A DNA stretch of 64,000 bases, from contig JAGWBS010000002.1 in assembly GCA_021295775.1 (NCBI GenBank), positions 31,986 through 95,985 of the forward strand. Reading direction: 5' to 3'. Positions 22,445 through 38,291 of the stretch are shown here, in pieces; within the stretch, counting starts at the first letter, position 1; each line of letters begins with the position of its first letter. Made by a program: the position numbers and the translations under genes. The notes beneath the pieces were generated by a model. That model did no database searches, was not told the origin of the DNA, and saw nothing but the letters and a program-made list of their open reading frames with translations. Source of the stretch: Pseudomonadota bacterium. Lineage in GTDB: Bacteria; Myxococcota_A; UBA9160; SZUA-336.

Positions 22445-23269
22445 GTGAGAGCGTCGCCGGCCTGGATCCTGATCGCCCTTCCGCTGCTCTGGGCCGCGCC
22501 TTCGGCCCCGGCCCAGCAGCCGGAAGCGGTCCAGGGACAGCCGGCAGCCGAGAGTTCCCCCGCCGCGGAGCGGGAGACCGCGGAACCGGCCGCTCCGCCC
22601 GCCGAAGGACGCACCCTCGCCGAGTGGTACGCCATGGGCGGCTGGGTCATGCACGTGCTGGTGGGCATGTCGGTGCTGAGCCTGATCGTCATCCTGGAGC
22701 GGTTCTGGTCGCTGCGACGCGGCGCAACGCTTCCGCGCGACTTTCTCGGCCAGTACCGCGACCACGCCCACCGCGGCGAACTGAAGCAGGTCGTGGAGCT
22801 CTGCTCCCAGTCGGACCACGCCGCGGCGCGCGTGCTGCGCTCGGGGCTGGTGCACTTCGACCAGGGGCTGGCCGACATGGTGGACGCCGCGTCGGTGGCC
22901 GGCGAGCAGGAGTCCGGCGGGCTGCGCCGCAACCTGCCCCTGCTGGCCGCGCTGGGAAACATGGCCACCATGCTGGGGCTGCTGGGCACGGTGCTGGGGA
23001 TGATCGAATCGTTCGACCTGATCGCCAAGACCGGCACCGGGGACGCGCGGGTGGTCGCCGGGGGGATCTTCCAGGCCCTGGTGACGACGGCCGCCGGGCT
23101 GATGGTCGGGCTGGTCGCCATCGGCGCGCACTCGCTGCTGCGCCGCAAGGCCGAAGGTCTCGAGGTCGAGCTGGTGGAGAAGTCCTCGCGCATGCTCGAG
23201 GACCTCTGGCTGAGGCGCGAGGCCTCCAAGCTGCCGCAGGGCGAGGCCAGCGAAGCGGCGGCGGGCTAG
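22445..23269 (+). CDS. exbB: MotA/TolQ/ExbB-family proton channel (ExbB-like) with N-terminal signal peptide and acidic/Pro-rich extension
   Basis: 274 aa. GTG start preceded by GAGGAG. N-terminus MRASPAWILIALPLLWAAPSAPAQ, then a linker. Family core: LPLLAALGNMATMLGLLGTVLGMIESF...GGIFQALVTTAAGLMVGLVAI. Confidence 0.85.
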   Translation: MRASPAWILIALPLLWAAPSAPAQQPEAVQGQPAAESSPAAERETAEPAAPPAEGRTLAEWYAMGGWVMHVLVGMSVLSLIVILERFWSLRRGATLPRDFLGQYRDHAHRGELKQVVELCSQSDHAAARVLRSGLVHFDQGLADMVDAASVAGEQESGGLRRNLPLLAALGNMATMLGLLGTVLGMIESFDLIAKTGTGDARVVAGGIFQALVTTAAGLMVGLVAIGAHSLLRRKAEGLEVELVEKSSRMLEDLWLRREASKLPQGEASEAAAG

Positions 23270-23272
23270 GCC

Positions 23273-23680
23273 GTGGCGCGCAACCGCGACGAGGACTCCG
23301 GCCTGGGGCTGACGCCGCTGGTCGACGTGGTCCTGCTGCTGCTGATCTTCTACATCGTCACGACCTCCTTCGTGGACCGGGAGATCGAACTCCGCCTGCC
23401 CGACTCCCAGGCGTCGGCGATCCCGGAGGAGAGGAAGAAGCTCACGATCGAGATCGGCCGCGAACCCGGCCAGCTCGCGCTCAACGGGGAGTCGCTCAGC
23501 GTCGAAGCCCTCGACCTGCGCATCGGCTCGGCCGCGCAAGCCGACGTCATCACCGCGGTCGAGATCCGGGCCGACCGCCTGGCGGTTCACGGCCGAGTCG
23601 TCGAAGTCCTGGGCATCGTCAAGAAGCACGGCGTCGACAACGTCGGAATCGCCGTGCGCCCGGTCGAAGCCCGCACCTGA
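23273..23680 (+). CDS. exbD: ExbD/TolR-family biopolymer transport protein
   Basis: 135 aa, starting 4 nt after the exbB stop. Its N-terminus LTPLVDVVLLLLIFYIV carries the conserved membrane Asp. Has an ExbD-like periplasmic domain. Confidence 0.85.
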   Translation: MARNRDEDSGLGLTPLVDVVLLLLIFYIVTTSFVDREIELRLPDSQASAIPEERKKLTIEIGREPGQLALNGESLSVEALDLRIGSAAQADVITAVEIRADRLAVHGRVVEVLGIVKKHGVDNVGIAVRPVEART

Positions 23681-23756: not shown

Positions 23757-24623
23757 ATGAAGTCCCCCTCGCTTTCCCTGCTCGCGAGCCTCTTGTGCGC
23801 CTTGCTCGTCGCGGCCGGCTGCTCCGCCAAGCGGCCCGAACTCCCCAGTACGTCGACGCCGCAAGTCCCCTCCGAGATGCCCTCCTCGGAGCGCAGCGCC
23901 GAGGGCCCCTCCGGCGGCTCCGGCCAGCAGTCCGGCGGCGGCGCGAGCGCGGGAGCGGGGAGCGCATCCGGCGGCTCCGCCGGCCTCGGCGACGAACGCT
24001 CTTCCCTTGGCGTATCCCCACCACCCGGCTCCGGCGCGGGCGGGAGCGCCGGCCCGGGTTCCGAAGCTCCCACCGCCTCGCGGGACGGCTCCGGCGCAGG
24101 CCCGACCCGGACCGAGCGCATAGAGGTCCTGGACCGGCGTTACTACGGCGTGCTCAGCGGCGGTGGATCCGGTGGCGATCCCGGCGGCGGCAGCGGCGCG
24201 GGCGGATCGCACAGCGGCACCGCCGGCGACGGCGGCGACGGGACCGCCGGCGAAGACGGACTCTCCGCCTCGCGTCCCGCCCTGGGAGTGCGAGGCGGCG
24301 AGAAGTCCGGCCGCGACGGCGAGCCGTCATCCGCGGCCGCCTCCGGAGTCTCTGGCGGCGAAGACTCCGAAGCCGGTCCATCGACCGGCGACCAGAGCCG
24401 GCCCTTCGAAACTTCGGGCAGCGGCGCGAACCCGGAGGACATCCCGCCGGTCGACAACGACGACGAGTTCGCGCGCCAGCTCCGCCGCGCGGCGGAAACC
24501 GAGACCGACCCCGAGCGCCGGCGCAAGCTCTGGAACGAGTACCGTCGCTACAAGGGCTTGCCCGAGCGAGCGGAAACCCAGCAGAGTGAGGAGGACGAGA
24601 CTCCTCGAGGAGACGACTCATGA
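23757..24623 (+). CDS. Gly/Ser-rich low-complexity lipoprotein with conserved-looking charged C-terminal helix
   Basis: ATG at 23757 within track ORF 23700..24623. Lipoprotein signal MKSPSLSLLASLLCALLVAAGC. About 200 aa of G/S/A/P/D-rich sequence follow. C-terminus: DDEFARQLRRAAETETDPERRRKLWNEYRRYKG. High GC3 in this frame. Confidence 0.65.
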   Translation: MKSPSLSLLASLLCALLVAAGCSAKRPELPSTSTPQVPSEMPSSERSAEGPSGGSGQQSGGGASAGAGSASGGSAGLGDERSSLGVSPPPGSGAGGSAGPGSEAPTASRDGSGAGPTRTERIEVLDRRYYGVLSGGGSGGDPGGGSGAGGSHSGTAGDGGDGTAGEDGLSASRPALGVRGGEKSGRDGEPSSAAASGVSGGEDSEAGPSTGDQSRPFETSGSGANPEDIPPVDNDDEFARQLRRAAETETDPERRRKLWNEYRRYKGLPERAETQQSEEDETPRGDDS

Positions 24624-25843
24624 GAGAACAGCCCGGCCCGGCCGCGAGATCCCTGGCTCTGGTCCTCGCCGCCGCCGTCTTCTCCGCGGCTTGCGGCGCC
24701 ACGGCCACCGGCCCGGCCCCGTCGGTCGTCGGCCCGAAGAGTTCGACCCAGGCCGAAGCGGAGGCGTCCGCCCCCCTCGCCGGAGGCGGCACGCTCGAAG
24801 TCGTCGTGCCGGTCTTCGATCCCGGACTGCCCGAGGACGAATCTTCCGAGGTCGACAAGGGCGTTTTTCCCGAGCTGCGAAAAGCCGAGGCGGTGCGCTT
24901 CGCCCAGAAGCTCAGGCTGGAACTCGAGTCGACCCGCGCTTTCGAAACCGTGCGCGTGGTTCCCGACGCCGAGAGCGCCGCCGATCTCTACCTGCGAGGC
25001 GAGATCCTCCATTCGGACGGCGCGACCCTGAAGATCCGCTTGACCGCGGAGGACGCCTCCAACCGTCGCTGGCTCTCCGAAACCTTCTCCCGCAAGGTCG
25101 GCCCGAGGTTCTTCGAGAGCCCGCGCAACGCGGGGCAGGACCCCTACGACCCGCTTTTCGCCGAGGCCGCTGAGGCGGTGGCCGACAAGCTGCGAAAGCT
25201 CGACCCCGAGCGCCTGGCCGAAATCGAGCGGATCGGGGAGATCCGCTTCGCCCGCAGCCTCAGCGAAGAGGCCTTCGCGGACTACGGAGGCTGGAGAAAC
25301 CGGCAGTTCGTGCTGACCGGGTTCCCCGACGAGAACGATCCGATGCTCAAGCGCGCGCGCGCGGCGCGCGTCCGGGACCGCATGTTCGTCGACGACTGGC
25401 AGACCTGGTACGAGGGCTTCTCGGGGGAGATGGACGAGAGCTACCGGCAGTGGCAGGAGCAGAGCCTGACCGAGGTACTGGCGCACCGTCAGGCCCGCAA
25501 CGAAGCCATCGCCAAGGCCGTGGTCGGAGCCGTCCTGGTCGCCGGCGCCGCGGCCGCCGCATCGCAGGGGACGGACCTCGGCACGGCGGGCGCCGTCGTC
25601 GGCGGCGTGGGGGCGATCGCCGCCGCCGCCCAGGCGCTCGAAGCCCGCAGGCAGGCCAAATTCCACCGCGAAGCTCTGCACGAGATCGCACAGTCCATCG
25701 ACGCCGAAATGGCCCCGAACGTCATGCGGCTGGAGGAGCGCGAAGTGGAGCTGACCGGCAGCGCCGCCGAGCAGTTCCGTCAGTGGAGGGCTCTGCTGCG
25801 CGAAATCTACGCCGAGGAAGCCGTCCCCGACGTCGATCTCTGA
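24620..25843 (+). CDS. Lipoprotein with C-terminal Gly/Ala-zipper hydrophobic segment (unknown function)
   Basis: 407 aa. ATGA overlap with the upstream stop. Signal/lipobox LALVLAAAVFSAAC. Glycine-zipper-like AVVGAVLVAGAAAAASQGTDLGTAGAVVGGVGAIAAAA near the C-terminus. Confidence 0.7.
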   Translation: MREQPGPAARSLALVLAAAVFSAACGATATGPAPSVVGPKSSTQAEAEASAPLAGGGTLEVVVPVFDPGLPEDESSEVDKGVFPELRKAEAVRFAQKLRLELESTRAFETVRVVPDAESAADLYLRGEILHSDGATLKIRLTAEDASNRRWLSETFSRKVGPRFFESPRNAGQDPYDPLFAEAAEAVADKLRKLDPERLAEIERIGEIRFARSLSEEAFADYGGWRNRQFVLTGFPDENDPMLKRARAARVRDRMFVDDWQTWYEGFSGEMDESYRQWQEQSLTEVLAHRQARNEAIAKAVVGAVLVAGAAAAASQGTDLGTAGAVVGGVGAIAAAAQALEARRQAKFHREALHEIAQSIDAEMAPNVMRLEEREVELTGSAAEQFRQWRALLREIYAEEAVPDVDL

Positions 25844-25849
25844 GACCGC

Positions 25850-27328
25850 GTGCCTGACCCGACCAACGACCCGGACCCGCGCGGGAAATCCGAAGCTCTC
25901 GACGACGCCAACGAACGCGCCTGGGCACGGCGCGGGAGATATCTCGGCGGGGCCGCCGGGGTGCTGCTGGCGACCGTCGTCGCCGTCGTCGGGATGAGCG
26001 TGTTCTTCCCCGGCGCGGACGCTACCCACTCCGATCCCCCCGAAACCGAAGTTCCGCCGGAGTTGCCGGTTCCGGCCCCCTTTCCCGACCGCGAGGCCCG
26101 CGAACTCTTCCTGCAGGCGCTCGAGGACTACCGCGTCGGACCCAAGCCGGAAGTCGAGTCCGAGGCTTTCGCCGCCTGGAGTTCCGAGGCCCGGGCGCGT
26201 CTCGAAGCCGGCGAGAAGGCCGCGGTGGAGGCCTTCGCGAACAGCGCCTTCGGCGAGGCTCTGCGACTCCTGACCGAGACCGCCGAACGCGCCGAGCGCG
26301 AGCTGGAGTCCCGCGACACGGCCTTTCGCGAAGCCCTCGACGACGCCGAGACGGCCCGCGCGGCCGCGGATCACGCGCGCGCATCGAGCCGCATCGCTCA
26401 GGCCCTGAAATGGAAGCCCGCCGACCCCGAGGCGCAGGTCCTGGCCCGGCGAATCGACGAGCTGCCGGCGGTCGCCGAGGCACTGGAAGAGGCCCGCGTG
26501 GCGCGCGCAGAAAACCGCCCCCGGCGCGAACTCGAAGCCCTGCGCAAGGCCCTCGCCGCGGATCCCGACCGCCCCGACGCGAGAGCCCGGGCGGAAGCGA
26601 TCTTTCGGGATCTCGCCGCGAAACGCTACGCGCGCGCACTGAACCGGGGTCTCGCCGCCGCCTCGGCCGGGGACCTGGACCGCGCCCGGGCCCGGCTGGC
26701 CGATGCCCGGTCCCTCGCCCCCGACCGCGAAGAGACGCTCGCGCTCGAGCGCGAAGTGGAAGCTCTGGCCAGACGCGGCGAAGTCCGGCGCGCTTTCGAG
26801 CGCGCCGAAGCGGACGCGCTCGAAGACCGCTGGCGCGAAGCCGCCGCCGGCTACGCCGCCGTCCTGATGCAGGATCCCGTCCACGCCCCGGCTTCCGGAC
26901 GCCTGGACCGCGCCCGGGAAATTCTCGCCACCCGGGCAGCGGTCGAGGGGCTGCTCGCCCGGCCCGAGCGTCTCGCCGAGGCGGGGGCCGAGCGCGCGGT
27001 CGCCGCCCTGATCGAACGAGGTCTCGCGCTCTCGGCACACAGTCCGAGCCTGGCCGGCTCCCTGCGGGAACTCGGCCGCCAGAGCGAGCGCTACCGCAGA
27101 GAGATCAGCGTGCTCGTGATCTCTGACGGACGCACCAGCGTCGCCGTCCGCGGCCTCGGGCGCATCGGCGAGGTTGAAAACAAGTCTCTTCGGCTGCGCC
27201 CCGGCCGCTACACTTTCGAGGGTAGGCGCAAGGGCTATCGCGACAAGCTGGTCGCCGTCGCGCTGACTCCCGAGGACGACGGCCGGGAGATCGAGGTGAG
27301 CTGTGACATCCCTCTCGAAACCAGGTGA
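25850..27328 (+). CDS. Single-pass membrane protein with long Ala/Arg/Glu-rich helical (coiled-coil/TPR-like) region and C-terminal PEGA-like beta domain
   Basis: 492 aa with a GTG start. TM segment YLGGAAGVLLATVVAVVGMSVFF. About 330 aa of helical repeats follow. C-terminus ISVLVISDGRTSVAVRGLGRIGEVENKSLRLRPGRYTFEGRRKGYRDKLVAV resembles a PEGA domain. Confidence 0.65.
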   Translation: MPDPTNDPDPRGKSEALDDANERAWARRGRYLGGAAGVLLATVVAVVGMSVFFPGADATHSDPPETEVPPELPVPAPFPDREARELFLQALEDYRVGPKPEVESEAFAAWSSEARARLEAGEKAAVEAFANSAFGEALRLLTETAERAERELESRDTAFREALDDAETARAAADHARASSRIAQALKWKPADPEAQVLARRIDELPAVAEALEEARVARAENRPRRELEALRKALAADPDRPDARARAEAIFRDLAAKRYARALNRGLAAASAGDLDRARARLADARSLAPDREETLALEREVEALARRGEVRRAFERAEADALEDRWREAAAGYAAVLMQDPVHAPASGRLDRAREILATRAAVEGLLARPERLAEAGAERAVAALIERGLALSAHSPSLAGSLRELGRQSERYRREISVLVISDGRTSVAVRGLGRIGEVENKSLRLRPGRYTFEGRRKGYRDKLVAVALTPEDDGREIEVSCDIPLETR

Positions 27329-27410
27329 ACTCGTGAATTCCCGGCGGACCGGGCGAGGTCCGCGGCGCGCCCGGTCCGAGTCCTCGCCGGCGGGCGACTG
27401 AAGCGAATCC

Positions 27411-28487
27411 ATGCCCTTCCGACGCCGCGAGCCGCCCGGCACCAACCTCGCCCTGCTGGACGTGATGTCCTGCGGGCTCGGCGCCGTGATCCTGGTGCTG
27501 ATGCTCGCCAAGCCTCATCTGGCGACCACCGAGATCCCCGCCCAGGCCGAAGTCCTCGAGGCCGAACTGGTCGGCTTGAACGCCCGGCGCGAAGCGCTGA
27601 ACGCCGAGCTGGCCCGCGCCGAGAGCGAAGCCGAGCGCGAGCGCGTGCGCGTGCTGGCCCTGCGCCGGCGCAGCGGCGTGCTCGAGGCCCGCCGTCGCGA
27701 CCAGTCCCTCGAGACGGCGCAGCGGCGGAGTTCCCTGTCGGCGGTCGAGAGCCTGCTGGAAAACCGTCCGGACCCGCCGACCGCCCCGACGCCCGACACG
27801 GTCGAGTTGGAGGCCAACAACGAGGCCGAGTACCTGATCGGCCTGAAGGTCGAGGGCCGGCGCATCGCCATCCTGATCGACGCCAGCGCCTCGATGACCG
27901 AGGAGAGGCTGATCGAAGTAATCCGGCGCAAAACCGGCACGCCGGACGAGCGTCGCGCCGGCCCCAAGTGGCAGCGCGCCCGCCGCGTCCTGCGCTGGCT
28001 CCTGGCCCGCCTCCCCCCCGACTCCCAGGTCGCGGTCCTCACCTACGCGGAGAAGGCCGAGTTCCTGGGCGAGCAGCGCTGGACGGACGCCTCCGATTCC
28101 GCGGCCCTCGGCGCTCTGGCCGTGGCGCTCGACGAGGTCGATCCCCGGGGTCCGACGAACTTCCGCGCCGGTCTCGACGCCGTCTGGGCGGAGCGTCCCG
28201 ACAGCCTCTACGTGGTCACCGACGGCCTGCCCACCCAGGGACGCGAGAGGAGCTTGCCCCGCCGATTCCTGAGCGGGATCAAGGGCGGCTGCGGGAACTC
28301 GAACACCATCTCGGGGGAATGCCGCCGGGCGCTGATGAACGAGGCCATCGACCGGAACTGGAACGGGCGGGTCGCGAACGCCATCCTGCTGCCGCTCGAA
28401 GGCGATCCCGAAGCTCCGGCGGTCTACGCGAACTGGACGAGAGGCACGGGCGGGCGCCTGCTCGCGCCGAGCCCGGACTGGCCATGA
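27411..28487 (+). CDS. ExbD/TolR/MotB-like Asp-TM anchor + coiled coil + VWA (MIDAS) domain protein, paralog 1
   Basis: 358 aa. N-terminus MPFRRREPPGTNLALLDVMSCGLGAVILVLMLA is a short basic tail followed by LLD at the start of a single TM helix. Coiled coil: EAELVGLNARREALNAELARAESEAERERVRVLALRRR. VWA domain with MIDAS DASAS (IAILIDASASM), a later T (GPTNF) and D (VVTDG). Confidence 0.75.
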   Translation: MPFRRREPPGTNLALLDVMSCGLGAVILVLMLAKPHLATTEIPAQAEVLEAELVGLNARREALNAELARAESEAERERVRVLALRRRSGVLEARRRDQSLETAQRRSSLSAVESLLENRPDPPTAPTPDTVELEANNEAEYLIGLKVEGRRIAILIDASASMTEERLIEVIRRKTGTPDERRAGPKWQRARRVLRWLLARLPPDSQVAVLTYAEKAEFLGEQRWTDASDSAALGALAVALDEVDPRGPTNFRAGLDAVWAERPDSLYVVTDGLPTQGRERSLPRRFLSGIKGGCGNSNTISGECRRALMNEAIDRNWNGRVANAILLPLEGDPEAPAVYANWTRGTGGRLLAPSPDWP

Positions 28488-29455
28488 GACGGCGGCGGCG
28501 CGCGTTCGACGTCTTCAGCATCTCGTTTCTGGACGCGATCGCCTGCGGTTTCGGCGCGGTGATCCTGCTGCTGATCGTCAGCCTGAACGCCGACCGCGCT
28601 CCGGCGGGAGCCCCGCCCGATGTCTCCGCCCTGCTCGACTCGGCCGTCGAAACCCGCCTCGAGACCACCGCCCTGAAAGAGCGTCTGGAACTCAGCCGGT
28701 CGGTGGACGCCGATGCCCGCGCCGAGGCGGCGGAACTCGAAGCGCGCATCCTCGCGGCGAGGGCCGCCTACGAAGCCGACCGCCGGGAAGCCCAACGGCT
28801 CGAGCGCCGACTGGCGAAGCTCATCCCGCCCGAAGAGCGCCCGGCCAGCGCCGCCACGCGCACCCCGGGCCCGGCGGAGGAACGCGACGACGAAGTGGGC
28901 GGGATCCCCGTCGGCAGCGAGTACGTGATCTTCGTGATCGACACCTCGGGATCGATGCGGAGCATCTGGGAAAAGGTCGTCGGGCGCCTCGAAGCCGTGA
29001 TCGACGCCCACCCGACGGTCAGCGGCTTTCAGGTCGTCAACGACAACGGCACCTACCTGCTCCCCGCGTACAAAGGGCGCTGGATCTCGGACACCCCCTC
29101 GCGCCGCCGCAGCGTCAAGAAAATGCTCCGGAATTGGAACAGCCTGTCCAACAGCAGTCCCGTCGAAGGCCTCGAAGAGGCCCTGGAACGCTACGCCCGT
29201 CCCGGCCGCAGGCGCTCGGTGTATGTATTCGGCGACGAGTACACCGGCGGCTCGTACGACGTGGTGCTCGATTCGCTGGAGCGCCACAATCGGGACCCGG
29301 TCAGCGGGCAACCGCTGGCGGAGGTTCACGCCCTGGGCTTCTTCTCGACCGCGGGGGCGACGAGCGCGAGCTACCTGCTGTCGTCGGCGCGTTTTTCGAT
29401 CCTCATGCGCGAGGTCGTGCGGCGCAACCGGGGAACCTACCTGACCGTGCCCTGA
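28484..29455 (+). CDS. ExbD/TolR/MotB-like Asp-TM anchor + coiled coil + VWA (MIDAS) domain protein, paralog 2
   Basis: ATG at 28484 (ATGA overlap with the paralog 1 stop), in frame within track ORF 27968..29455. N-terminus MRRRRRAFDVFSISFLDAIACGFGAVILLLIVS. Coiled-coil segment present. MIDAS DTSGS (VIFVIDTSGSM). 323 aa. Confidence 0.75.
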   Translation: MRRRRRAFDVFSISFLDAIACGFGAVILLLIVSLNADRAPAGAPPDVSALLDSAVETRLETTALKERLELSRSVDADARAEAAELEARILAARAAYEADRREAQRLERRLAKLIPPEERPASAATRTPGPAEERDDEVGGIPVGSEYVIFVIDTSGSMRSIWEKVVGRLEAVIDAHPTVSGFQVVNDNGTYLLPAYKGRWISDTPSRRRSVKKMLRNWNSLSNSSPVEGLEEALERYARPGRRRSVYVFGDEYTGGSYDVVLDSLERHNRDPVSGQPLAEVHALGFFSTAGATSASYLLSSARFSILMREVVRRNRGTYLTVP

Positions 29456-29518
29456 TGCCCGGAGCGGGCTTGGCGACCCGACCTCGCGCCGGCGGGGGCG
29501 CGTGGCAGGGACGCCGTC

Positions 29519-30301
29519 TCAGCCAGTCCCGTCGGGATCGGGGGCTGGAAGCGCGCTGATGCGCCCGACCAGCACCTCGTCGCAGTAGCGGCGGGTGTCG
29601 ATCACCAGGCCGTCCTGCAGGCGCTGAAGCTGGTGCAGGAAGAACATCAGCACGATGCTGATCAGCAGCGCCACCAGGGTCGAGTTGAAGGCCAGGCCCA
29701 GACTCTCGGTCATCGCGAAGATGTCGCCCGCCAGCGCCTGGTCCGCCTGGGACAGCGCCCGCCCGATGCCGCGCACGGTGCCGATGAAGCCGATCGAAGG
29801 GATCGCCCAGATCAGGTAGCGGATCAGCGAGTTCTCGGCCTCCTGCTGGGCCGCCAGAGCGTCCACGCCGGCCTCGATCGCCTCGGAGGCGTTCTGCACG
29901 TCGCGCTGGACCGCGAAGCGCCGCAGACCGGCGGCCAGCGTCTGGACCAGGGGCGTGCGCCAGACGTCGGGGCGCTGGCGTCCCAGCTCCTCGAAGCTCC
30001 GGACGGCCCGGGCGGGATCGCCCGAGACGTCGGTGTCCTCGAGCAGGTCGGTGTCGAACAGGTACTGCTGGCGCAGGATCGTCCGGTACTTGTCGAAGAT
30101 CAGGAACAGCCCCCAGACCATCAGCACCAGACAGATTTCCTGCTCGTAGTCCTTCAGTACGATCCAGAGATTGCGCGGAGTCGCCATGCCCGCCTCCATG
30201 GCGGCCTCGATCGACCGCTCTGCCTGGGGGCGGACCCAGCCCAGGTAGGCGGCGTGGATCCCGACGATGGAGGCGGCCAGGGCGGCCAGGCTTCGAAACA
30301 T
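29519..30301 (-). CDS. MotA/TolQ/ExbB-family proton-channel protein, 4-TM MotA-like topology (orphan stator A-subunit)
   Basis: 260 aa. Four hydrophobic helices with a cytoplasmic insert between TM2 and TM3. Family core: LIWAIPSIGFIGTVRGIGRAL...ESLGLAFNSTLVALLISIVLMFFLHQL. Confidence 0.75.
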   Translation of the reverse strand: MFRSLAALAASIVGIHAAYLGWVRPQAERSIEAAMEAGMATPRNLWIVLKDYEQEICLVLMVWGLFLIFDKYRTILRQQYLFDTDLLEDTDVSGDPARAVRSFEELGRQRPDVWRTPLVQTLAAGLRRFAVQRDVQNASEAIEAGVDALAAQQEAENSLIRYLIWAIPSIGFIGTVRGIGRALSQADQALAGDIFAMTESLGLAFNSTLVALLISIVLMFFLHQLQRLQDGLVIDTRRYCDEVLVGRISALPAPDPDGTG

Positions 30302-30302
30302 T

Positions 30303-30431
30303 TCAGATGTCCACCGGGAAGGTCGTGGGCGAGTTCAGACTGAGGCGCCCCTGCGCGATCGCCACCCCGGCCGCCGCGGCGGCCGTCACGGCCAGGGCGA
30401 CCAAGAGCCAGAGAATGCGCCGACGCTGCAT
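30303..30431 (-). CDS. 42-aa single-pass membrane micro-protein (not in ORF track)
   Basis: Hand translation gives MQRRRILWLLVALAVTAAAAAGVAIAQGRLSLNSPTTFPGDI*. GGAGGA lies 6 nt upstream of the ATG (30431). It starts 9 nt after the upstream stop (30441), and its own stop is 1 nt before the MotA-like ATG (30301). High GC3. Confidence 0.5.
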   Translation of the reverse strand: MQRRRILWLLVALAVTAAAAAGVAIAQGRLSLNSPTTFPVDI

Positions 30432-30440
30432 GGTCTCCTC

Positions 30441-32420
30441 CTATAGATAGCGGCCGATGCGAAAGCCTAGGTCATCCCGGCGGCCGCCGAACCCTTCGCG
30501 GCGGGCGGCGCGAAGTCCGCTGCGCGTCCCCGTGCGCCAGCTCGCTCCCTTGACCACGTGAACGCTTCCGTAGCCGGGACCCAGGGGGTCGATTTCGACC
30601 GATCCCGGGGCCGGAGGCTCGAGCAGATAGAAGTCGTGGACCCACTCGCTGGCGTTGCCGGTCAGGTCGAACAGTCCCGAGCGCTCGGGCGCGAAGCTGC
30701 CGACCGGGGCGAGCCGGGCGAATCCGTCCGAGTAGCGGGGGACGTAGGTTTCGACCGACCCCTTGGCAGTCTCGTCGGCGACGTTGCCCACTCCGGACGG
30801 CAGCGTATCCGAGTCGCCCCAGGGAAAGACCGTCCGGCGCCCGCGCCCGGCCTGCCGCGCCAACCACTCCCACTCCGCCTCGGTCAGCAGGCGGTAGCCG
30901 TCCGGCGGATCCTGGCCTCCTCCCGCGTGGGCGTAGAACGGAGTCAGGCCCTCCCGGACGCTCAGCCAGTCGCAGAACGCCACCGCCTCCGCCCAGGAGA
31001 CCGAGGTCGCGGGGTGGTCGCCCCGCTCCCCGGGGTGCCCGGGGCGGAAGCTGCGGAACTGCTCCAGGCTGACTTCGTGCAGTCCGGCGTAGAACGGCCG
31101 GCTCAGCCGGACGTCGCGCTCGAACTCGTTGGCGCGCTGTCCCTTCTCGCCGCGCGGATCGCCCATCCGGAACGCCCCCGCCGCGCCGGGATTGAGCAGC
31201 ACCAGGCTCGCGCCGACGGAGTTGGTGTAGCGGACGGGCGCGCGCGCCAGCCGCGCCTCCCGCTCGGTCAGCAGGGTCTCCCGCAGCAGCGTGGCCCGCT
31301 CGGGGTCCGGAGCGAGCGTGCGGCGGACCGTCTCGTAGCCGCGGCGCTGCAGCTCGATCCGCGTTTCCTGCGCCGGCAGAACCAGATCGAGGGGGGTCCG
31401 GCCGGCGGGCTCGCCGTCGATCCGCACCTCGGAAACGGGATCGGATTCGATCCGCGCGCGCCCGGTCTTGCGGGTCAGGTGCAGCTCCAGGGTCCGCGTC
31501 TCCCCCCGGTCGAGGGTCGCGTGCAGGGTGCGGGGAAAGTAGCCCTCCAGCGAGTAGCGCACGCTGTGCTCGGCGTGCGCCGCTACGCGCTCGGGATTCG
31601 AGGCGCGGAATCCGTCGACCAGCAGCAACCCTCCCGCTGGGGACAGGTCGAAGCGCAGCTCGGCGGAGGGAGGGACCAGGCGGTAGTTGCGGCGGGCCAG
31701 GGGCCGGTCGCGGGTCAGCTCCAGCGTGTCGCGGACGGGCGCGTAGCCCGGCAGTCGGAGCGCGACCGGATAGCGCCCCGCGGGCAACTCCCGCTCCAAA
31801 GGCGTCGGCAGGGGGTCGAGGCCTTCGATCTCGACCGACGCCCCGCTCGGCTCGGAGCGCAGTTCGAGCCGTCCCCGGGCGCGACTCAGCGGCAACGAGA
31901 CCTCCAATCGGGCGCCCCGCTCGACCTGGATGTCGAGGTCGGCGATCTCGTACCAGTCGTGGCGGGCGGAGAGACGGTAGGCTCCGGCGTGCAGTTCGTG
32001 CTCCAGGAGCGCGCCGATGCCCGCCAGCGCGTCGTCCACGTACCAGCGTGTTTCCACCTCGGGAGGATGCGTGGAAGCGTGGACCCGTCCGGGCAGCGGC
32101 TCGAGCGCGACGCTCAGGGTCCGGCCGGGGGTGTGGATCGGCAGCGTCCTGGCGGCGAACCCGGGTGCCGAAACGCGAACCTCCAGTTCGCCCCCGAGAT
32201 CGTAGACCCGGCCCAGGATCACCAGCGCCCAGCCGGACGCGAGTTCGATCCGGGCGTTCTCCGACGCCTCCGGGGGTTGCACCTCGACGGGCGTGCCGCG
32301 CGTCAGCGCCAGCGTCACGCCCAGCACCAGCGCGCCGACCGCCAAGCCCAGCGCGGCGTAGAGGGAGCGGAGCCACCAGCGCCTCTGCACCCTTCGAAGC
32401 TGGCGTTCAGTGGGAGACAT
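30441..32420 (-). CDS. Membrane-anchored PEGA-repeat protein with C-terminal FGE-sulfatase-like (SUMF1/GldK-like) domain lacking the FGE cysteine pair
   Basis: 659 aa. TM segment WWLRSLYAALGLAVGALVLGVTLAL. At least 3 PEGA-like units (e.g. LRSEPSGASVEIEG...LPAGRYPVALRLPGYAPVRDTLEL; IESDPVSEVRIDGEPAGRTPLDLVLPA...LQRRGYETV). FGE-like C-terminus: HPATSVSWAEAVAFCDWL...YRLLTEAEWEWLAR...GNASEWVHD...VVKGASWRTGTRSGLRAARRE...DLGFRIGR. No Cys occurs where FGE has its CxxxxC. Confidence 0.8.
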   Translation of the reverse strand: MSPTERQLRRVQRRWWLRSLYAALGLAVGALVLGVTLALTRGTPVEVQPPEASENARIELASGWALVILGRVYDLGGELEVRVSAPGFAARTLPIHTPGRTLSVALEPLPGRVHASTHPPEVETRWYVDDALAGIGALLEHELHAGAYRLSARHDWYEIADLDIQVERGARLEVSLPLSRARGRLELRSEPSGASVEIEGLDPLPTPLERELPAGRYPVALRLPGYAPVRDTLELTRDRPLARRNYRLVPPSAELRFDLSPAGGLLLVDGFRASNPERVAAHAEHSVRYSLEGYFPRTLHATLDRGETRTLELHLTRKTGRARIESDPVSEVRIDGEPAGRTPLDLVLPAQETRIELQRRGYETVRRTLAPDPERATLLRETLLTEREARLARAPVRYTNSVGASLVLLNPGAAGAFRMGDPRGEKGQRANEFERDVRLSRPFYAGLHEVSLEQFRSFRPGHPGERGDHPATSVSWAEAVAFCDWLSVREGLTPFYAHAGGGQDPPDGYRLLTEAEWEWLARQAGRGRRTVFPWGDSDTLPSGVGNVADETAKGSVETYVPRYSDGFARLAPVGSFAPERSGLFDLTGNASEWVHDFYLLEPPAPGSVEIDPLGPGYGSVHVVKGASWRTGTRSGLRAARREGFGGRRDDLGFRIGRYL

Positions 32421-32440: not shown

Positions 32441-33553
32441 TCAGTAGACGAGATCCGTATCGGTAATCTCCTGGCGGACCAGCCGGCCCTCGCGGTAGTA
32501 GGACGTGACCTCGACATCCCCATCGCCGTTCAGGTCCTCTTCCTTGCGGGCCAGGACCGGCCGGGCTGGGTCGTCGCCTTCATAGTATTCCCAGACGTCG
32601 GAACGTCCGTCTTCATTCGCGTCGATCTCGGCGCGCTCCGGGAAACCGGAAAGATCGTAGAAGGTACGGATCTCCATCCCGCCGGAAAAATCCCGGTCTT
32701 CCAGCTCGATGGCGCGACGCCGGCCCTCGTACTCCACCCGCCGGTCGATGCTTCCGTCGTTGTTGGTGTCGTGCTCCTCGTCGGTCAGCCAGCCGTTCGC
32801 GTAGCGGAACAAGCCGTCGCGGACCCCGTCGAAGTCCCGGTCGACCACGACCCGCGTCGCGCGGCCGTCCGCGCCGTACTCGGTCCAGCGGTCCGGCATC
32901 CCGTCGTGGTTGGTGTCCTGTTCGCGAGAGGCGATCCCGCCGGAGCCGTGGTAGGCGTTGACCGTGTCGAAGCGGCCGTCGTAGTCGGTGTCCTCCAAAC
33001 GCGCGAGCAGGGCGCCGCTGCGCGCGTCGTGCTCGATGCGGATTTCCGGATTCCCGTCGCGGTCCGCGTCCAGCAGCTTGACCAGCAGCTCCTGTTCGCC
33101 GACGCGGTGAAGTTCGCGTTCGAAGATGGATTCCGGCAGATCCCGCTCGACCGGTGCGCGCGGAGCTGCCAGCGGATCGACGGACGCCCGGGGCTCGGCG
33201 CCGCCCGCGGCGGCCGCCCCGCTGCGAGCCAGCTTCTCTTCGCGTCGGATCTGCTCCAGCAGCTCTTCCTGCCGCCGGAGTTCGGCCTCGATCTCGTCCT
33301 CCAGCGCCCGCTGGCGCCAGAGTTCGCCCTCGATCTCGGCTTCCAGGATTTCTTCGGAGCGAGCGCTGCCCTGCTGGCTGCGGACGGGCAGGCTTCCGTC
33401 GTCCCCCCGGCGCTCGGTCGCGGCGAAAGGCACCGAGGGGCCGAACGCAGCCGCGCTGGCGGCTCCGGCGCTCCCGGCCGGGGCGCCTCCGAGCAGCGCA
33501 GCCAGCAGCCAGACGGGGGTGGAGAAGGGCGCTGCAGGGCTACGAATGCGCAT
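32441..33553 (-). CDS. Secreted coiled-coil protein with 8 Dx[DN]xDG-type repeats (short paralog of the giant repeat protein)
   Basis: Start trimmed to ATG at 33553, preceded by GGAGGCGGAGGAA. Signal-like N-terminus MRIRSPAAPFSTPVWLLAALLGGAPAGSAGA. Acidic coiled coil: EILEAEIEGELWRQRALEDEIEAELRRQEELLEQIRREEK. Repeats such as DTDYDGRFDTV, DTNHDGMPDRW, DTNNDGSIDRR, DANEDGRSDVW. Confidence 0.7.
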   Translation of the reverse strand: MRIRSPAAPFSTPVWLLAALLGGAPAGSAGAASAAAFGPSVPFAATERRGDDGSLPVRSQQGSARSEEILEAEIEGELWRQRALEDEIEAELRRQEELLEQIRREEKLARSGAAAAGGAEPRASVDPLAAPRAPVERDLPESIFERELHRVGEQELLVKLLDADRDGNPEIRIEHDARSGALLARLEDTDYDGRFDTVNAYHGSGGIASREQDTNHDGMPDRWTEYGADGRATRVVVDRDFDGVRDGLFRYANGWLTDEEHDTNNDGSIDRRVEYEGRRRAIELEDRDFSGGMEIRTFYDLSGFPERAEIDANEDGRSDVWEYYEGDDPARPVLARKEEDLNGDGDVEVTSYYREGRLVRQEITDTDLVY

Positions 33554-33613
33554 TTCCTCCGCCTCCCGGCACCGGGCTCGAAAAGCTAGCACGCGCCCGG
33601 GCCGCGGCCCGGG

Positions 33614-36600
33614 CTATCGCTTCCAGAAATCGCTGAACCCGCCGCAGCTCAGCGCCCCGAATTCCTTCGTTCCCGTGGGCGCCGCTTCGCCGTCGACCTC
33701 TACCGCCCGCTCGCTGGCCAGGTCGAAACGCACGTCCACGCGGCCGTCGAAGTCGCGGTCCTCGGCCTGCACGCTGGGGGCGCCAGCGGCGTAATCGACC
33801 CAGACGTCCGGGCGGCGGTCGGCATTGGTGTCCGCCTCCATGCGCAGCGGCACCCCGTCCTCGTACAGGTTGCGGCGGTCGCCGTAGCCGTCCCGGCTCG
33901 AGTCCTCGACGCTGACCCGGATCACGCCCGCTTCGTACTCGATCCGGGTGCGCGGCGTGCAGCGCCACTGTGCGTTGCCCTCGGCGTCGAAGCGCGTGAG
34001 CCGGTCCGGGAGGCCGTTGCAGTTGCGGTCCTCCTCCTGGGCGGCGATCCGCTCGCCGTCGAAGAGGAAGACGATGTTGGGGCGGGTGCAGCTCCCGCGG
34101 GCCTCGGCCTGGATCCGCTTGACGCCGCCTTCCAGGTGCTCCCAGACATCGATCCAGCCGTTCTGGTTGGTGTCCCGCTCCACGCGCCGGACCTCGCCGC
34201 CGGCCAGGAAGGTGAAGGTGTCGTAGGCGCAGTCTCCGTCGCTGTCCACGGCGTCCTCGACCACCTGCCCATCCGGTGAGAAACGCTGCCGGTGATCCAG
34301 GCAGCCCGCCCCCCGGTCCTCCTCGAGTTCCGCGGCCACGCCGTCCGCGAAGCGCGTCACGCGCTCGGGCTCGCCGTCCTCGTCCAGGTCTTCGATCCGC
34401 TCGCGGGGCTCGCCGGCGGCGTCGAAGACGAGGCTCAGGTCGGGCTCGCCGTTGGCGTCGGTGTCGCGCCGCTCCAGGGCGATCTTCCCGTCCGGGGCGA
34501 GGTCGAGCCAGCGGTCGACCCGGCCGTCGGCGTCGGTGTCGTGCTCCTGGCGCAGCTCGACCCCCGCCTCGAGGTAGACGCGGACGTCGAAGCGGCCGTC
34601 GCCGTCGGTGTCCCTGCGGACTTCGCGCGGTTCCGACTCGCCCGCGGCGTAGAGATCGATCTTGTCCACCCGGCCGTCGGCGTCCGCGTCGGACTCGACC
34701 CGCGAAAGCGCGCCATCGAGGTAGTGGGAGACGGTCTCGAAGCGGCCGTCGCCGTCGAGGTCCGATTCCTGCCGCGCGAGCCGCCCGTCCTCGTAGTGGG
34801 ACAGACTGTCGAACTCGCCGTCGAAGTCGGTGTCCGAGCGCAGGCGAACTTGAACGCCGTGCCGGAATTCGCCGATGTGGTCGTCCCGGCCGTCGAAGTC
34901 GCGGTCCTCGGCCTGGCCGGTCTGAATCCCCTGCGCGTAGGTCTTCGCGGCATCGGTGCGGCCGTCGCCGTTGGTGTCCACGCGCTCGAGCCGCGGGCGG
35001 CCCGCGGCGTCGAACTCGGTCCACTGGTCGAAGGCGCCGTCGCCGCTCGCATCCCGCATCTGGCGGGCGATACGGCCCGCCTCGAACTCGCTGACCGCCT
35101 CGGCGAAGCCGTCGCCGTCGGCGTCGCGCTCCTCGCGCACCCGCCTCTCTCCGCTGTCGTCGTAGAGCGTGGACACCTCCGGGACGCCGTTTCCGTCGGC
35201 GTCGAGTTCGACCCGCGCGCGGCGCTCCCGGCGATAGTGGACGATCGCCTCGAAGACGCCGTCGAAGTCCTCGTCGCTGAAATCGCGGGCGATGGAACCC
35301 TGGGCGTCGTATTCGGCGCGGTAGTCCACTCGGCCGTCGAAGTTGCGGTCCTCCGTCAGCCCCGCGGCGAGTTCGCCCGACAGCCGCGCGGTCCGGTCCG
35401 GCTCCCCGTCGCCGTTGGTGTCGGTCTCCACCCGAGTGCGCGCGCCGCCGGCGTAGTCCGTCCAGGTGTCCACCCGGCCGTCGCCGCTGGTGTCCTCCAG
35501 CACGCGCTGGGGCTCGCCGGAAACCGGGTCGAGCATCACCCACTGGTCGGGCTGGCCGTCGCCCCGCGTGTCGCGCTCCTGCTTGTGCATGCGGCCGTCC
35601 TCGAAGAAGCTCCACAGGTCCGTGCGGCCGTCGAAATCCTCGTCCAGGAACTGCTGCAGCGGCCGGCCGTCCCGCAGCTTCTCCGTGAAGTCGACGCGAC
35701 CGTCGGCGTTGCGGTCCTGTTCGCGCTCGCTGGGCTGGCCGTCCGCGAAGCGCGTGCGCAGTTCGAGCGCGCCGTCGCCGTCGCTGTCCTCGCGCTGCTC
35801 GGCGAGCTGCCCCGCGAGGAAGTCGTACTCCACGTCCACGCGACCGTCGTAGTCGCGGTCCTCGCGCTGGACCGAGCGCTGGCCGCCCGCGAACTCCACC
35901 CAGGTGTCGACCGCACCGTCCGCGTTGGTGTCGCGCTCGCTGGCGACCTTGGCGCCGTCGCGGTAGCGATCGTCCACGTCGGCCGTTCCGTCGCCGTCCG
36001 CGTCGCGCGTCTCGCGCTCCAGCGCGTCGTCCCGGTATTCGCGCCAGACGTCGAAGACGCCGTCGGCGTCGCTGTCGATCTCCTCGCGGACCCGCACTTC
36101 CCGCTCGTCGTAGTGGACCGCGATCTCTATCCGACCGTCGCTGTCCGCGTCGCGTTCCTGGCGCACCCGCCGGCCGTCCCGGAAAAACAGCAGCGTCTCG
36201 TGGCGGCCGTCGTGGTCCACGTCGACCTCCTCGCGCGCGAGCGCCTCGCCCCGGTAGTGGCCGATCCGGTCGGGCGAGCCGTCGCCGCTGGTGTCTTCCT
36301 CGGTGCGGATCTTGAGCCCCTCGGCGTAGTGGATGCGCAGGTTAAGCTCACCGTCGCCGGTCGTGTCCTGCTCCTCGAGCTGCTTGTTCCCCTGGGCGTC
36401 GAAGGTCGAAAGCGCCTCAGGCCGGCCGTCTTCGTCCGGGTCGAGCCACTTCTGGTAGACCCGGTCGCCGCGGTACAGGGTGACGTCGTTCGGCTTGCCG
36501 TTGCCGTCGGGATCCCGTTCCAGCCGCGTCCGGACGCCCGCCTCGAAATACAGGTGGGTGTCCGGTCGTCCGTCGAAGTCGCTGTCGTCCCGCTGCAGCG

Positions 36601-36931
36601 AAGGCCTTCCCTCGGCGTCCAGGTCCACCCAGCGGTCGGGCCGGCCGTCGCCCGAGCGGTCCTCTTCGACGCGGATCTCCCGGCCGTCCTCGAAGAAGCG
36701 CCACTGGTCGACCCGGCCGTCGCGGTCGCCGTCCAGCTCGATGCGCTCGATCTCCCCGTCCAGGAAGTGGTCCCAGCGGTCGGGGGAGCCGTCCCCGTCG
36801 AGGTCCGCGACCTGCCGCAGAAGTTGTCCGGTCGCGGGGTCGAACTCGCGAACCACCCCCGCCCGGGCCAGGTCGGGCCCGAACGCCGACAGCAGCAGGC
36901 CAGCGGCGCAGGCCCGAGCGATCACGGGCAC
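33614..36931 (-). CDS. Giant secreted tandem-repeat protein (about 1105 aa, about 40 Dx[DN]xDG Ca-loop-like repeats, Cys-containing C-terminal region)
   Basis: Lies in the frame of track ORF 33614..38071, whose part upstream of 36931 overlaps tonB in another frame and is junk. Candidate starts are GTG at 36931 (VPVIARACAAGLLLSAFGPDLARAG, signal-like) or GTG at 36925 (GTGA overlap with the tonB stop). Repeat period is about 24-25 aa, e.g. EEDRSGDGRPDRWVDLDAEGRPSLQR / ERDTNADGAVDTWVEFAGGQRSVQR. Confidence 0.75.
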   Translation of the reverse strand: MPVIARACAAGLLLSAFGPDLARAGVVREFDPATGQLLRQVADLDGDGSPDRWDHFLDGEIERIELDGDRDGRVDQWRFFEDGREIRVEEDRSGDGRPDRWVDLDAEGRPSLQRDDSDFDGRPDTHLYFEAGVRTRLERDPDGNGKPNDVTLYRGDRVYQKWLDPDEDGRPEALSTFDAQGNKQLEEQDTTGDGELNLRIHYAEGLKIRTEEDTSGDGSPDRIGHYRGEALAREEVDVDHDGRHETLLFFRDGRRVRQERDADSDGRIEIAVHYDEREVRVREEIDSDADGVFDVWREYRDDALERETRDADGDGTADVDDRYRDGAKVASERDTNADGAVDTWVEFAGGQRSVQREDRDYDGRVDVEYDFLAGQLAEQREDSDGDGALELRTRFADGQPSEREQDRNADGRVDFTEKLRDGRPLQQFLDEDFDGRTDLWSFFEDGRMHKQERDTRGDGQPDQWVMLDPVSGEPQRVLEDTSGDGRVDTWTDYAGGARTRVETDTNGDGEPDRTARLSGELAAGLTEDRNFDGRVDYRAEYDAQGSIARDFSDEDFDGVFEAIVHYRRERRARVELDADGNGVPEVSTLYDDSGERRVREERDADGDGFAEAVSEFEAGRIARQMRDASGDGAFDQWTEFDAAGRPRLERVDTNGDGRTDAAKTYAQGIQTGQAEDRDFDGRDDHIGEFRHGVQVRLRSDTDFDGEFDSLSHYEDGRLARQESDLDGDGRFETVSHYLDGALSRVESDADADGRVDKIDLYAAGESEPREVRRDTDGDGRFDVRVYLEAGVELRQEHDTDADGRVDRWLDLAPDGKIALERRDTDANGEPDLSLVFDAAGEPRERIEDLDEDGEPERVTRFADGVAAELEEDRGAGCLDHRQRFSPDGQVVEDAVDSDGDCAYDTFTFLAGGEVRRVERDTNQNGWIDVWEHLEGGVKRIQAEARGSCTRPNIVFLFDGERIAAQEEDRNCNGLPDRLTRFDAEGNAQWRCTPRTRIEYEAGVIRVSVEDSSRDGYGDRRNLYEDGVPLRMEADTNADRRPDVWVDYAAGAPSVQAEDRDFDGRVDVRFDLASERAVEVDGEAAPTGTKEFGALSCGGFSDFWKR
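33725..36805 (-). repeat. Protein-level tandem repeat array (about 40 units of roughly 72-75 nt) inside the giant CDS; boundaries approximate
   Basis: By-eye enumeration of 40 clear and 3 degenerate units, each with E-x-D-x-[DN]-x-DG-x-x-D-x-[WF/aliphatic]...G. The units are divergent at the DNA level, so this is not a simple nucleotide repeat. Confidence 0.7.
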
Positions 36932-37977: not shown

Positions 37978-38291
37978 CGGAAAGTTTGGATTGCCTCTGC
38001 GTGCGTTCTGTTCGACCGTCGGTCCGGAATGCCGAACTCTCCGAAAGACCGCGCGGCCAGAAGCGGCTCAACCTAGAATCGCCCCGCCTTGCGTGTCAAC
38101 CCGAGCCGGGTCGTAACTGCTCGACAATTCAGCCAATTCGAGATTTCCAACGGAGCCGCGGAGGGGGCCGGGAGCCCGGGCCGGGTCGGGGCTCCGAGCG
38201 CCGCGCGAATTGTCCGCGGCTTGAACCGGAGCTCAGTTTCGGTTATCGTTCGCGGCCTGCGGCGTGTTCCTGGCGGCTAGTCGCACGTTTC

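Follow-up and report, generated by a model that had tools for sequence, protein, structure and literature searches.

A pair of membrane-anchored VWA proteins as putative B-type subunits of an ion-driven 5:2-type motor: a rearranged member of a published family

Introduction

Which role can be attributed to two tandem genes whose products join a single, Asp-bearing transmembrane (TM) helix to a coiled coil and a VWA domain with a metal ion-dependent adhesion site (MIDAS)? The two genes, hereafter VWA-1 and VWA-2, lie at positions 27411-29455 of a 64,000-nucleotide stretch of contig JAGWBS010000002.1 (assembly GCA_021295775.1, positions 31,986 to 95,985), which is here referred to, at its full length, as the window. 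The initial annotation of this DNA, made from the letters alone, suggested that both proteins may be alternative B-type subunits of a stator-like motor, in which a stalk plus a VWA head takes the place of the usual periplasmic module, and knew of no characterisation of this architecture. The first idea is well supported by comparative genomics and is matched by an independent prediction (PMC12204202). The second did not stand: the architecture had already been described in silico in 2025 (PMC12204202).

In our reading, VWA-1 and VWA-2 probably make up the "axle" of an ion-driven motor of the 5:2 type, as its two non-identical B-type subunits; the A subunit would be the product of the neighbouring gene g6. 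Eight genes form a conserved cluster (g1 to g8), which ends with the VWA pair (VWA-1 being g7 and VWA-2 being g8). The idea of an alternative B subunit is, then, not new, and the window holds a rearranged member of a published family. To the published description, the present analysis adds: (i) internal conservation controls; (ii) the finding that homology to ExbD is not demonstrable; and (iii) the full conserved cluster, including a PorK/GldK-like protein and a mini-protein with a P-x-D-I ending.

Domain architecture of VWA-1 and VWA-2

Long spurious open reading frames (ORFs) are plentiful because the G+C content of the window is 70-75%; domain content and conservation elsewhere were used to pick the real genes. 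The features of the VWA pair are the following:

27411-28487, plus strand: VWA-1 (g7), 358 amino acids (aa), proposed motor B-type subunit 1
27444-27509, plus strand: VWA-1 TM helix (proposed trans-pore helix), residues 12-33, motif LLDVMSCGLGA
27459-27461, plus strand: GAC codon of VWA-1 Asp17
27543-27761, plus strand: VWA-1 long helix, residues 45-117, predicted heptad-periodic coiled-coil stalk of ~11 nm if straight
27858-28484, plus strand: VWA-1 VWA domain, with conserved GPTN and TDGLPT loops and a conserved Cys pair (C290, C304)
27879-27893, plus strand: VWA-1 MIDAS motif DASAS
28484-29455, plus strand: VWA-2 (g8), 323 aa, proposed motor B-type subunit 2, with an ATGA overlap with the VWA-1 stop codon
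28514-28582, plus strand: VWA-2 TM helix (proposed trans-pore helix), ~residues 11-33, motif FLDAIACGFGA
28532-28534, plus strand: GAC codon of VWA-2 Asp17
28622-28822, plus strand: VWA-2 long helix, residues 47-113, heptad-periodic, ~10 nm
28901-29452, plus strand: VWA-2 VWA domain, with invariant SNSSPVEG and FGDE loops
28940-28954, plus strand: VWA-2 MIDAS motif DTSGS

VWA-1 begins with MPFRRREPPGTNLALLDVMSCGLGAVILVLML and VWA-2 with MRRRRRAFDVFSISFLDAIACGFGAVILLLIV. Both proteins share the same layout: (i) a basic N-terminal tail; (ii) one TM helix with the Asp; (iii) a heptad helix of ~70 residues; and (iv) a VWA domain. What the initial annotation had read directly from the sequence proved to be correct. 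The coordinates bear out the ATGA coupling of the two genes (VWA-2 ATG at 28484-28486, VWA-1 TGA at 28485-28487), and the basic tail followed by an Asp motif of the form [LF][LV]D[VA] is present in VWA-1, in VWA-2 and in an ExbD encoded upstream. The stretch after the TM helix is indeed heptad-like, with a hydrophobic period of 3.5 residues in both long helices, the observed power being reached by 0/2000 shuffles. Likewise, the MIDAS motifs DASAS and DTSGS are intact, and they are accompanied by the Thr/Ser loop and the Asp loop.

Pfam recognises the VWA domains only marginally: VWA-1 matches VWA_2 with an E-value of 6.9e-6 (27.1 bits, the cut-off being 27), while the match of VWA-2 to VWA_3 (9.3e-5) is under the family cut-offs. 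The question was settled by AlphaFold 2 (AF2) models, a check proposed in the initial annotation, which predict a VWA fold for both C-terminal domains and a helical stalk for both proteins, with a predicted local distance difference test (pLDDT) score mostly above 85 within the two heads. In the VWA-1 model, residues 15-32 and 45-117 (the latter 73 residues long) are helical, and a domain of high confidence follows from approximately residue 150; in that of VWA-2, the helices span 10-35 and 47-113 (67 residues) and are followed by a disordered linker (118-135) and an alpha/beta domain of high confidence. With Foldseek, the VWA-2 head matches ANTXR2/CMG2, ITIH1, integrin I domains and calcium-channel alpha2delta, and the VWA-1 head matches CLCA1, BatA/BatB (4jdu, 3ibs) and pilus-tip PilB, all with a probability of 1.0.

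Both heads have complete MIDAS sites, for which metal binding is predicted: residues D157, S159, S161, T249 and D271 of VWA-1, and D153-T-S-G-S157, the S222-S225 loop and D251 of VWA-2, are invariant among homologs. The Cys pair C290/C304 of VWA-1 (C..L.G.S.TISGEC), also conserved in homologs, lies within an insert of the VWA domain and would fit a periplasmic disulfide. By BLASTP, the similarity between VWA-1 and VWA-2 is confined to the TM helix (43% over 30 residues); their family profiles are homologous across 253 columns (hhalign E = 1.6e-22).

Conservation of the Asp-bearing helix

Well over a thousand homologs were found for each of the two proteins, nearly all of them full length and with ~40-50% identity; a search seeded with a Gammaproteobacterial member gave 5142 homologs (protein clusters at 90% identity). 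The motif L-D-x-x-x-C-G-F-G-A is invariant in the best VWA-2 homologs (120/120) and so is D-x-x-x-C-G-L-G-A in the full-length VWA-1 homologs (110/110). In both families together, the Asp is unchanged in 230/230 full-length homologs; 10 further VWA-1 entries, which start at a Met just past the Asp and look like mis-called starts, were left out. The Asp is also constant across 69 non-redundant genomic loci belonging to several phyla, in which positions -2 to +8 around it (F-L-D-x-x-x-C-G-[FL]-G-A) hardly vary, whichever face of the helix they lie on. This near-invariance on all faces fits a helix that is enclosed by protein. Taken alone, the shared four-residue [LF][LV]D[VA] motif would be weak evidence.

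As an internal control, mean column identity was compared between segments within the same genomes. It reaches 0.74 in the TM helix of VWA-1 and 0.77 in that of VWA-2, as opposed to 0.35 and 0.36 in the TM anchors of the operon neighbours g4 and g3, respectively; the VWA coiled coils are at 0.33-0.39 and the VWA domains at 0.55-0.64. Within the system, the VWA helices are exceeded in conservation only by TM3 (0.89) and TM4 (0.83) of g6, whose TM1 and TM2 stand at 0.55 and 0.62. In known motors, the pore is lined by the helices that correspond to g6 TM3 and TM4. Since the VWA TM helices are about twice as conserved as the ordinary anchors of the operon, they are not generic signal anchors. Two objections foreseen in the initial annotation, namely an Asp that varies among homologs and a helix that is a mere signal anchor, are thus contradicted by the data.

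The MotA-like protein and its synteny with the VWA pair

The proposed partner of the pair is encoded on the opposite strand:

29519-30301, minus strand: g6, proposed pentameric A subunit, MotA/ExbB/TolQ family, 260 aa, four predicted TM helices

The MotA-like identity of this protein was confirmed by its match to MotA_ExbB (PF01618), with 51.5 bits over a cut-off of 22.9 (E = 1e-13). The motifs RY..WAIPS.GF.GTVRGI and LG.AFNST are invariant in g6; their cores, GTVRG and AFNST, are invariant in 16-73 orthologs, and may face the pore, as is reported for the AlphaFold 3 (AF3) model of the Idiomarina system (PMC12204202). The cytoplasmic loop, of 85-90 residues, is poorly conserved next to TM3-4.

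In a scan of one genome per species, at least 218 species were found to carry the family. The 80 loci that were kept span Alpha-, Beta-, Gamma- and Zetaproteobacteria, Desulfobacteraceae, Acidobacteriota and one Verrucomicrobia metagenome-assembled genome (MAG), and the 69 non-redundant loci cover Alpha-, Beta-, Gamma- and Zetaproteobacteria, Desulfobacterota and Acidobacteriota. When the count is restricted to the 71 loci that extend 2.5 kb or more upstream of the pair, the MotA-like gene adjoins the VWA genes in 69/71, so that the architecture does not occur at large without a neighbouring MotA/ExbB-family gene, a further objection considered in the initial annotation. Within ~10 kb, no ExbD/TolR-like ORF was found in 86 other loci, the sole one being the window's own ExbD. 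The genes g7 and g8 are always present as one of each. Judging from this adjacency and from the lack of ExbD/TolR-like ORFs, g6 is an orphan A subunit, always accompanied by exactly one VWA-1 and one VWA-2.

Limits of the relationship with ExbD, TolR and MotB

Several results weigh against the reading of the VWA pair as B-type subunits. Regarding g6, it is a divergent member of the MotA/ExbB family: among PDB sequences, the one match of its profile was B. subtilis MotA, which was not significant (E = 0.13), and a single-sequence PDB search with g6 gave no match. Regarding synteny, two genomes have VWA genes with no adjacent MotA-like gene, these being (i) the Verrucomicrobia MAG (locus L043, 10001-11002), where VWA-2 stands alone among unrelated genes; and (ii) Peristeroidobacter soli (locus L081, 8754-11014), where only the VWA pair is present and the rest of the cluster is not within 10 kb. 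In addition, when mutual information was computed across the 69 loci for pairs of g6 and VWA TM columns, it was uninformative, dominated as it was by the split between two major clades.

Regarding the helix itself, a profile of the 42 N-terminal residues matched no ExbD, TolR or MotB among PDB sequences and Pfam families (HMMER). By Pfam, neither the full-length proteins nor 42 N-terminal segments, at E up to 10, matched ExbD (PF02472); the full-length proteins have no OmpA or MotB_plug match either, their C-terminal domain having a VWA fold instead. When hhalign was run against 147 diverse ExbD representatives, whose helix consensus is [IL]-[ND]-[LI]-T-P-L-[IV]-D-V-V-F-L-L-L-I-F-F, the Asp residues were placed in register (FLDA on LIDV) over 4 columns only (P = 0.037). 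The profile alignment to ExbD/TolR/MotB that the initial annotation had suggested gave, in short, no significant match in Pfam, PDB or hhalign. Since the hhalign alignment spans 4 columns and is not significant, homology between the VWA and ExbD helices is not demonstrable and cannot be claimed. The VWA helix would resemble the ExbD helix by position and role, without provable ancestry. As for the features expected of a B-type subunit, both proteins have a single N-terminal TM helix, a strictly conserved Asp17 near its cytoplasmic end and a basic tail.

Relation to the published TPH-vWA family

A recent study predicted in silico that "trans-pore-helix vWA" (TPH-vWA) pairs are partners of TolQ-like pentamers (Mol Biol Evol 2025;42:msaf138; PMC12204202). 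Its seed was Idiomarina loihiensis (Fig. 4c,d), the family was reported in Proteobacteria and Verrucomicrobia, and the AF3 model of the Idiomarina system has the two Asp residues surrounded by the Thr ring of the pentamer (PMC12204202). As in the window, the published proteins are TM-tethered vWA heteropairs with a conserved TM Asp, tightly syntenic with a tolQ-like gene and with no tolR/exbD nearby; the window differs in that its cluster is split into two convergent units.

The family of the window, along with the full cluster, is present in Idiomarina xiamenensis, and on this account it is taken to be the TPH-vWA family of PMC12204202. This identification is based on genus, architecture and synteny, because the supplement of that study holds no vWA sequences. 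The text of PMC12204202 is silent on PEGA, sulfatase/FGE, GldK and PorK, as well as on the other five conserved genes, the P-x-D-I peptide, MIDAS conservation and the Hsp70-like/FHA variant described below. Two reviews of 5:2 motors make no mention of VWA.

The conserved eight-gene cluster

The canonical order of the cluster, g1-g2-g3-g4-g5-g6-g7-g8, is seen in Sneathiella marina, Methylophaga thiooxydans, a Desulfurellaceae MAG and I. xiamenensis, and hidden Markov models built from four clusters found it almost everywhere in the loci. The members not yet described are the following:

23757-24623, plus strand: g1, first cluster gene, secreted or lipoprotein-like protein with a lipobox-like LVAAGC; start uncertain (the ORF opens at 23700)
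24620-25843, plus strand: g2, conserved second gene, predicted lipoprotein of ~400 aa with the signal ...VFSAAC
25850-27328, plus strand: g3, conserved third gene, ~485 aa, with an N-terminal TM anchor, a helical TPR-like region and a C-terminal beta domain
30441-32420, minus strand: g4, ~670 aa, with a TM anchor, PEGA repeats and a C-terminal domain of the FGE-sulfatase fold
30303-30431, minus strand: g5, ORF of 42 aa between g4 and g6, with a signal-peptide-like N-terminus and the C-terminal ending ...SPTTFPVDI

In the g1 family, of ~200 aa, the middle of the protein is a low-complexity Gly/Ser region, while the C-terminal motif PEDIP..DNDD...ETDPE..KLWNEYR.YKG is conserved. The g2 protein, with no Pfam or PDB match, bears a Gly/Ala-rich hydrophobic stretch close to its C-terminus. 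The TPR assignment of g3 comes from Pfam TPR matches in orthologs, faint in some of them; a single-sequence PDB search with g3 gave no match.

In g4, Pfam detects PEGA (1.5e-25) and FGE-sulfatase (3.4e-32) domains. Among solved structures, the FGE-fold domain is closest to PorK/GldK (~1e-13), with human FGE (formylglycine-generating enzyme) just behind (5e-13). Judged by what we take to be the position of the catalytic Cys motif in human FGE, g4 has no Cys pair there, and a catalytic FGE role was rejected for this reason. Neither can g4 be assigned to PorK/GldK of the type IX secretion system (T9SS): the similarity is limited to the domain, and there are no PorL/M/N-like genes in the cluster.

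In the g5 family, whose length ranges from 38 to ~100 aa, conservation is limited to the C-terminus (...I-S-x-[DN]-x-x-V-S-F-P-V-D-I). The exact ending F/Y/L-P-[VI]-D-[IF] occurs in 60/75 loci. As for the 15 remaining loci, L032 ends in MPVDI, and 8/8 others that were inspected end in FPGDI, LPSDI, FPADI, FPTDI, FPVNI or MPSDI. Judging from these sequences, an ending of the form [FLM]-P-x-[DN]-I-COOH is near-invariant across phyla.

Many Gammaproteobacterial and Acidobacterial clusters have an extra gene between g6 and VWA-1 (for instance, L033:7652-8911, with equivalents in L035, L046, L049, L051 and L072). Its product, presumably cytoplasmic, combines an Hsp70-nucleotide-binding-domain (NBD)-like region (SSZ1, 1e-5) with an FHA domain (Pfam 7.5e-12, in 3/6 members; degenerate in some). 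A single-sequence PDB search with the extra gene of the Gammaproteobacterial type found no match.

Arrangement in the window and surroundings

In the window, the cluster (23757-32420) is broken up into a plus-strand unit, g1-g2-g3-g7-g8 (23757-29455), and a minus-strand unit, g4-g5-g6 (32420-29519), which converge. Almost everywhere else, the cluster is co-directional. A metagenomic relative at 74% identity, which is the closest relative with a long contig (locus L087), has the same split and convergent arrangement, without the upstream ExbB-ExbD; since this relative shares the arrangement, the split is characteristic of the lineage rather than an artefact of assembly. Locus L064 is split otherwise, with g4-g8 facing g3-g2-g1. 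In the 74%-identical relative, g3 (L087:7132-8811) starts with a J domain (DnaJ, 8e-17) that is absent from the g3 of the window.

Directly upstream of the cluster there is a canonical ExbB-ExbD pair (22445-23680, plus strand), with no TonB-like gene before g1:

22445-23269, plus strand: ExbB (Pfam 1.5e-24)
23273-23680, plus strand: ExbD (Pfam ExbD 3.8e-24), which contains GLGLTPLVDVVLLLLIFYIV

The ExbD gene is, as first annotated, genuine. In contrast, the suggested link between the VWA pair and the neighbouring ExbB was not sustained: this ExbB has its own ExbD, and the adjacency is not conserved. ExbB-ExbD was rejected as a partner of the cluster, given that they are adjacent in no other locus, not even in the 74%-identical relative, and it is a coincidental neighbour of g1. 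Downstream of the cluster, two minus-strand ORFs (32441-33592, 383 aa; 33614-38071, 1485 aa) have Asp/Gly-rich repeats of the type D-x-D-x-DG-x-x-D; the first one has a sub-threshold match to DUF6802 (E = 0.011), and the second has no Pfam match. These ORFs are not conserved beside the cluster in L087.

Proposed mechanism and alternative explanations

As B-type subunits, VWA-1 and VWA-2 would each have the short basic tail in the cytoplasm and the Asp approximately three residues in from the cytoplasmic face. Both helices would lie together inside a g6 pentamer, at a presumed 5:2 stoichiometry, and the Asp residues would take up and release protons (or Na+) beside the conserved Thr/Ser of g6 TM3 and TM4; this cycling would result in the relative rotation of pentamer and dimer. 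That two copies insert into the A pentamer is suggested by the gene pair and by the published AF3 model (PMC12204202). Past the membrane, a parallel heterodimeric coiled coil of ~10 nm would lead, via a flexible linker, to two different MIDAS heads in the periplasm; the similar stalk lengths (73 and 67 residues) with a heptad pattern count in favour of this model. The heads may bind their partners through a metal-coordinated acidic residue, coupling the motor to the rest of the eight-gene envelope assembly. Candidate ligands are: (i) the near-invariant Asp near the g5 C-terminus; (ii) the acidic motif of g1; and (iii) the FGE-fold domain of g4. The g5 C-terminus might, alternatively, be a TPR ligand of g3, by analogy with EEVD-COOH peptides. 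Given the Hsp70-like/FHA insert of some lineages, the machine may also have a cytoplasmic output.

What such a machine does can only be proposed tentatively. A possible, albeit doubtful, picture is that of an unnamed envelope-spanning machine driven by the proton motive force (PMF) and distinct from Ton, Tol, flagellar, Agl/Glt, T9SS and Zorya systems, in which the MotA-like pentamer turns a two-headed axle; the axle would engage the FGE-fold/PEGA protein g4, the TPR protein and outer-membrane lipoproteins, and the P-x-D-I ending of g5 would be a MIDAS ligand or a TPR-bound peptide. Its architecture would parallel that of GldLM-GldK, and the machine would act at the outer membrane or on the cell surface, for instance in adhesion, surface motility, secretion or envelope maintenance.

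It is unlikely that the VWA pair is, instead, a static anchor in the same complex, which would hold on through its MIDAS heads, as MotB does on peptidoglycan, while the g6 pentamer rotates against a cytoplasmic partner. The four-TM, MotA-like g6 with its 85-90-residue loop would be suitable for this, and the Hsp70-NBD-like/FHA protein inserted in many Gammaproteobacterial and Acidobacterial clusters, together with the J domain on g3 in one lineage, could provide the partner; but neither the window nor any Alpha-type cluster has a cytoplasmic component, g1-g5 are all predicted to be extracytoplasmic, and the loop is poorly conserved relative to TM3-4.

Rather improbable is a third explanation, according to which the VWA proteins are periplasmic scaffolds similar to BatA/BatB, with a TM Asp that serves for dimerisation or for metal/ion binding, and with peripheral contact to g6, or none, the B subunit of g6 being encoded elsewhere. 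The undetectable ExbD homology, the resemblance of BatA/BatB structures to the VWA-1 head and the two genomes with VWA genes but no neighbouring g6 would all agree with it. It is at odds, however, with the invariance of the Asp and the first three helical turns on all faces, with a TM conservation twice that of the true anchors of the same operon, with the synteny in 69/71 loci and no B-subunit gene nearby in any other locus, and with the pore insertion of the published AF3 model (PMC12204202).

Finally, a Zorya-like anti-phage system, with a MotAB-like sensor triggering effectors, is most improbable, since the weak ZorA matches of g6 (PADLOC, 0.001 at 16 bits; NCBIfam, 0.044 at 12.7 bits, the cut-off being 500) are far under the family cut-offs and limited to the shared MotA/ExbB core, no ZorB/C/D-like protein, nuclease or other effector accompanies it, the remaining genes code for envelope proteins, and the cluster is a stable unit of the chromosome, whose gene order is kept from phylum to phylum next to varied neighbours; with VWA-1 and VWA-2, PADLOC and NCBIfam gave no defence-system match and no named family. 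The composition of the cluster points to an envelope-spanning assembly rather than to a defence system.

Comparison with other known systems

The proposed motor of g6 and the VWA pair shares with ExbB-ExbD and TolQ-TolR a PF01618 A subunit with conserved Thr in the last two TM helices, as well as the adjacency of the genes. Like ExbD/TolR, the VWA proteins start with a short basic stretch and have one TM helix, whose Asp, in an [LFI][LIV]D[VI] context, lies close to the cytoplasmic face. They lack, however, the periplasmic ExbD/TolR domain, form a heteropair instead of a homodimer, and bear a coiled-coil stalk plus VWA heads; past the Asp, their helix continues as S-C-G-[FL]-G-A, whereas that of ExbD/TolR has a Leu/Phe run. 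Unlike Ton and Tol, the system of the window has no TonB/TolA-like third protein, and g6 has four TM helices instead of three.

MotA-MotB and PomA-PomB are similar in their four-TM A subunit and in a B subunit with a TM Asp plus a periplasmic anchoring module, but the VWA proteins have neither a plug helix nor an OmpA-like peptidoglycan-binding domain, and there are no flagellar genes nearby. In the case of GldL-GldM/PorL-PorM, the likeness would consist of a 5:2 motor whose dimer is a long periplasmic stalk, with a co-encoded FGE-fold protein without catalytic cysteines. The cluster would represent a second case of a 5:2-type motor encoded with a PorK/GldK-like FGE-fold domain. In contrast, no relation of GldL/GldM to g6 or to the VWA proteins is detectable, and the protonatable residue is on GldL; moreover, PorK is a lipoprotein, whereas g4 is TM-anchored and has PEGA repeats, and the cluster contains no PorN or T9SS genes.

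AglR-AglQ/AglS, from the gliding machinery of Myxococcus, also joins a TolQ-like motor to two different TolR-like subunits. A VWA/MIDAS protein, CglB, is reportedly the force-coupled adhesin of this gliding machine. The CglB VWA is, however, a separate outer-membrane lipoprotein that is not fused to a motor subunit, and the system of the window has no Glt homologs. BatA/BatB of Bacteroides, structural neighbours of the VWA-1 head, are likewise a TM-anchored VWA pair encoded with TPR proteins; to our knowledge, they have no MotA-like gene, no such Asp-bearing N-terminal helix and no coiled-coil stalk.

Biological significance

The system is found widely among diderm bacteria of marine and sedimentary origin, in at least 218 species-level genomes, and its cultured hosts include Idiomarina, Pseudoalteromonas, Alteromonas, S. 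marina and M. thiooxydans. Its conserved partners, namely the PEGA/FGE-fold protein, the TPR protein, the lipoproteins and the P-x-D-I mini-protein, are concrete experimental handles. If the proposed reading of the VWA pair is true, the B subunit of 5:2 ion motors would be a modular position, which may be heterodimeric and in which the peptidoglycan-binding or ExbD fold may be exchanged for an adhesive, metal-dependent VWA head. The range of targets on which PMF-driven motors act would, in that case, be wider.

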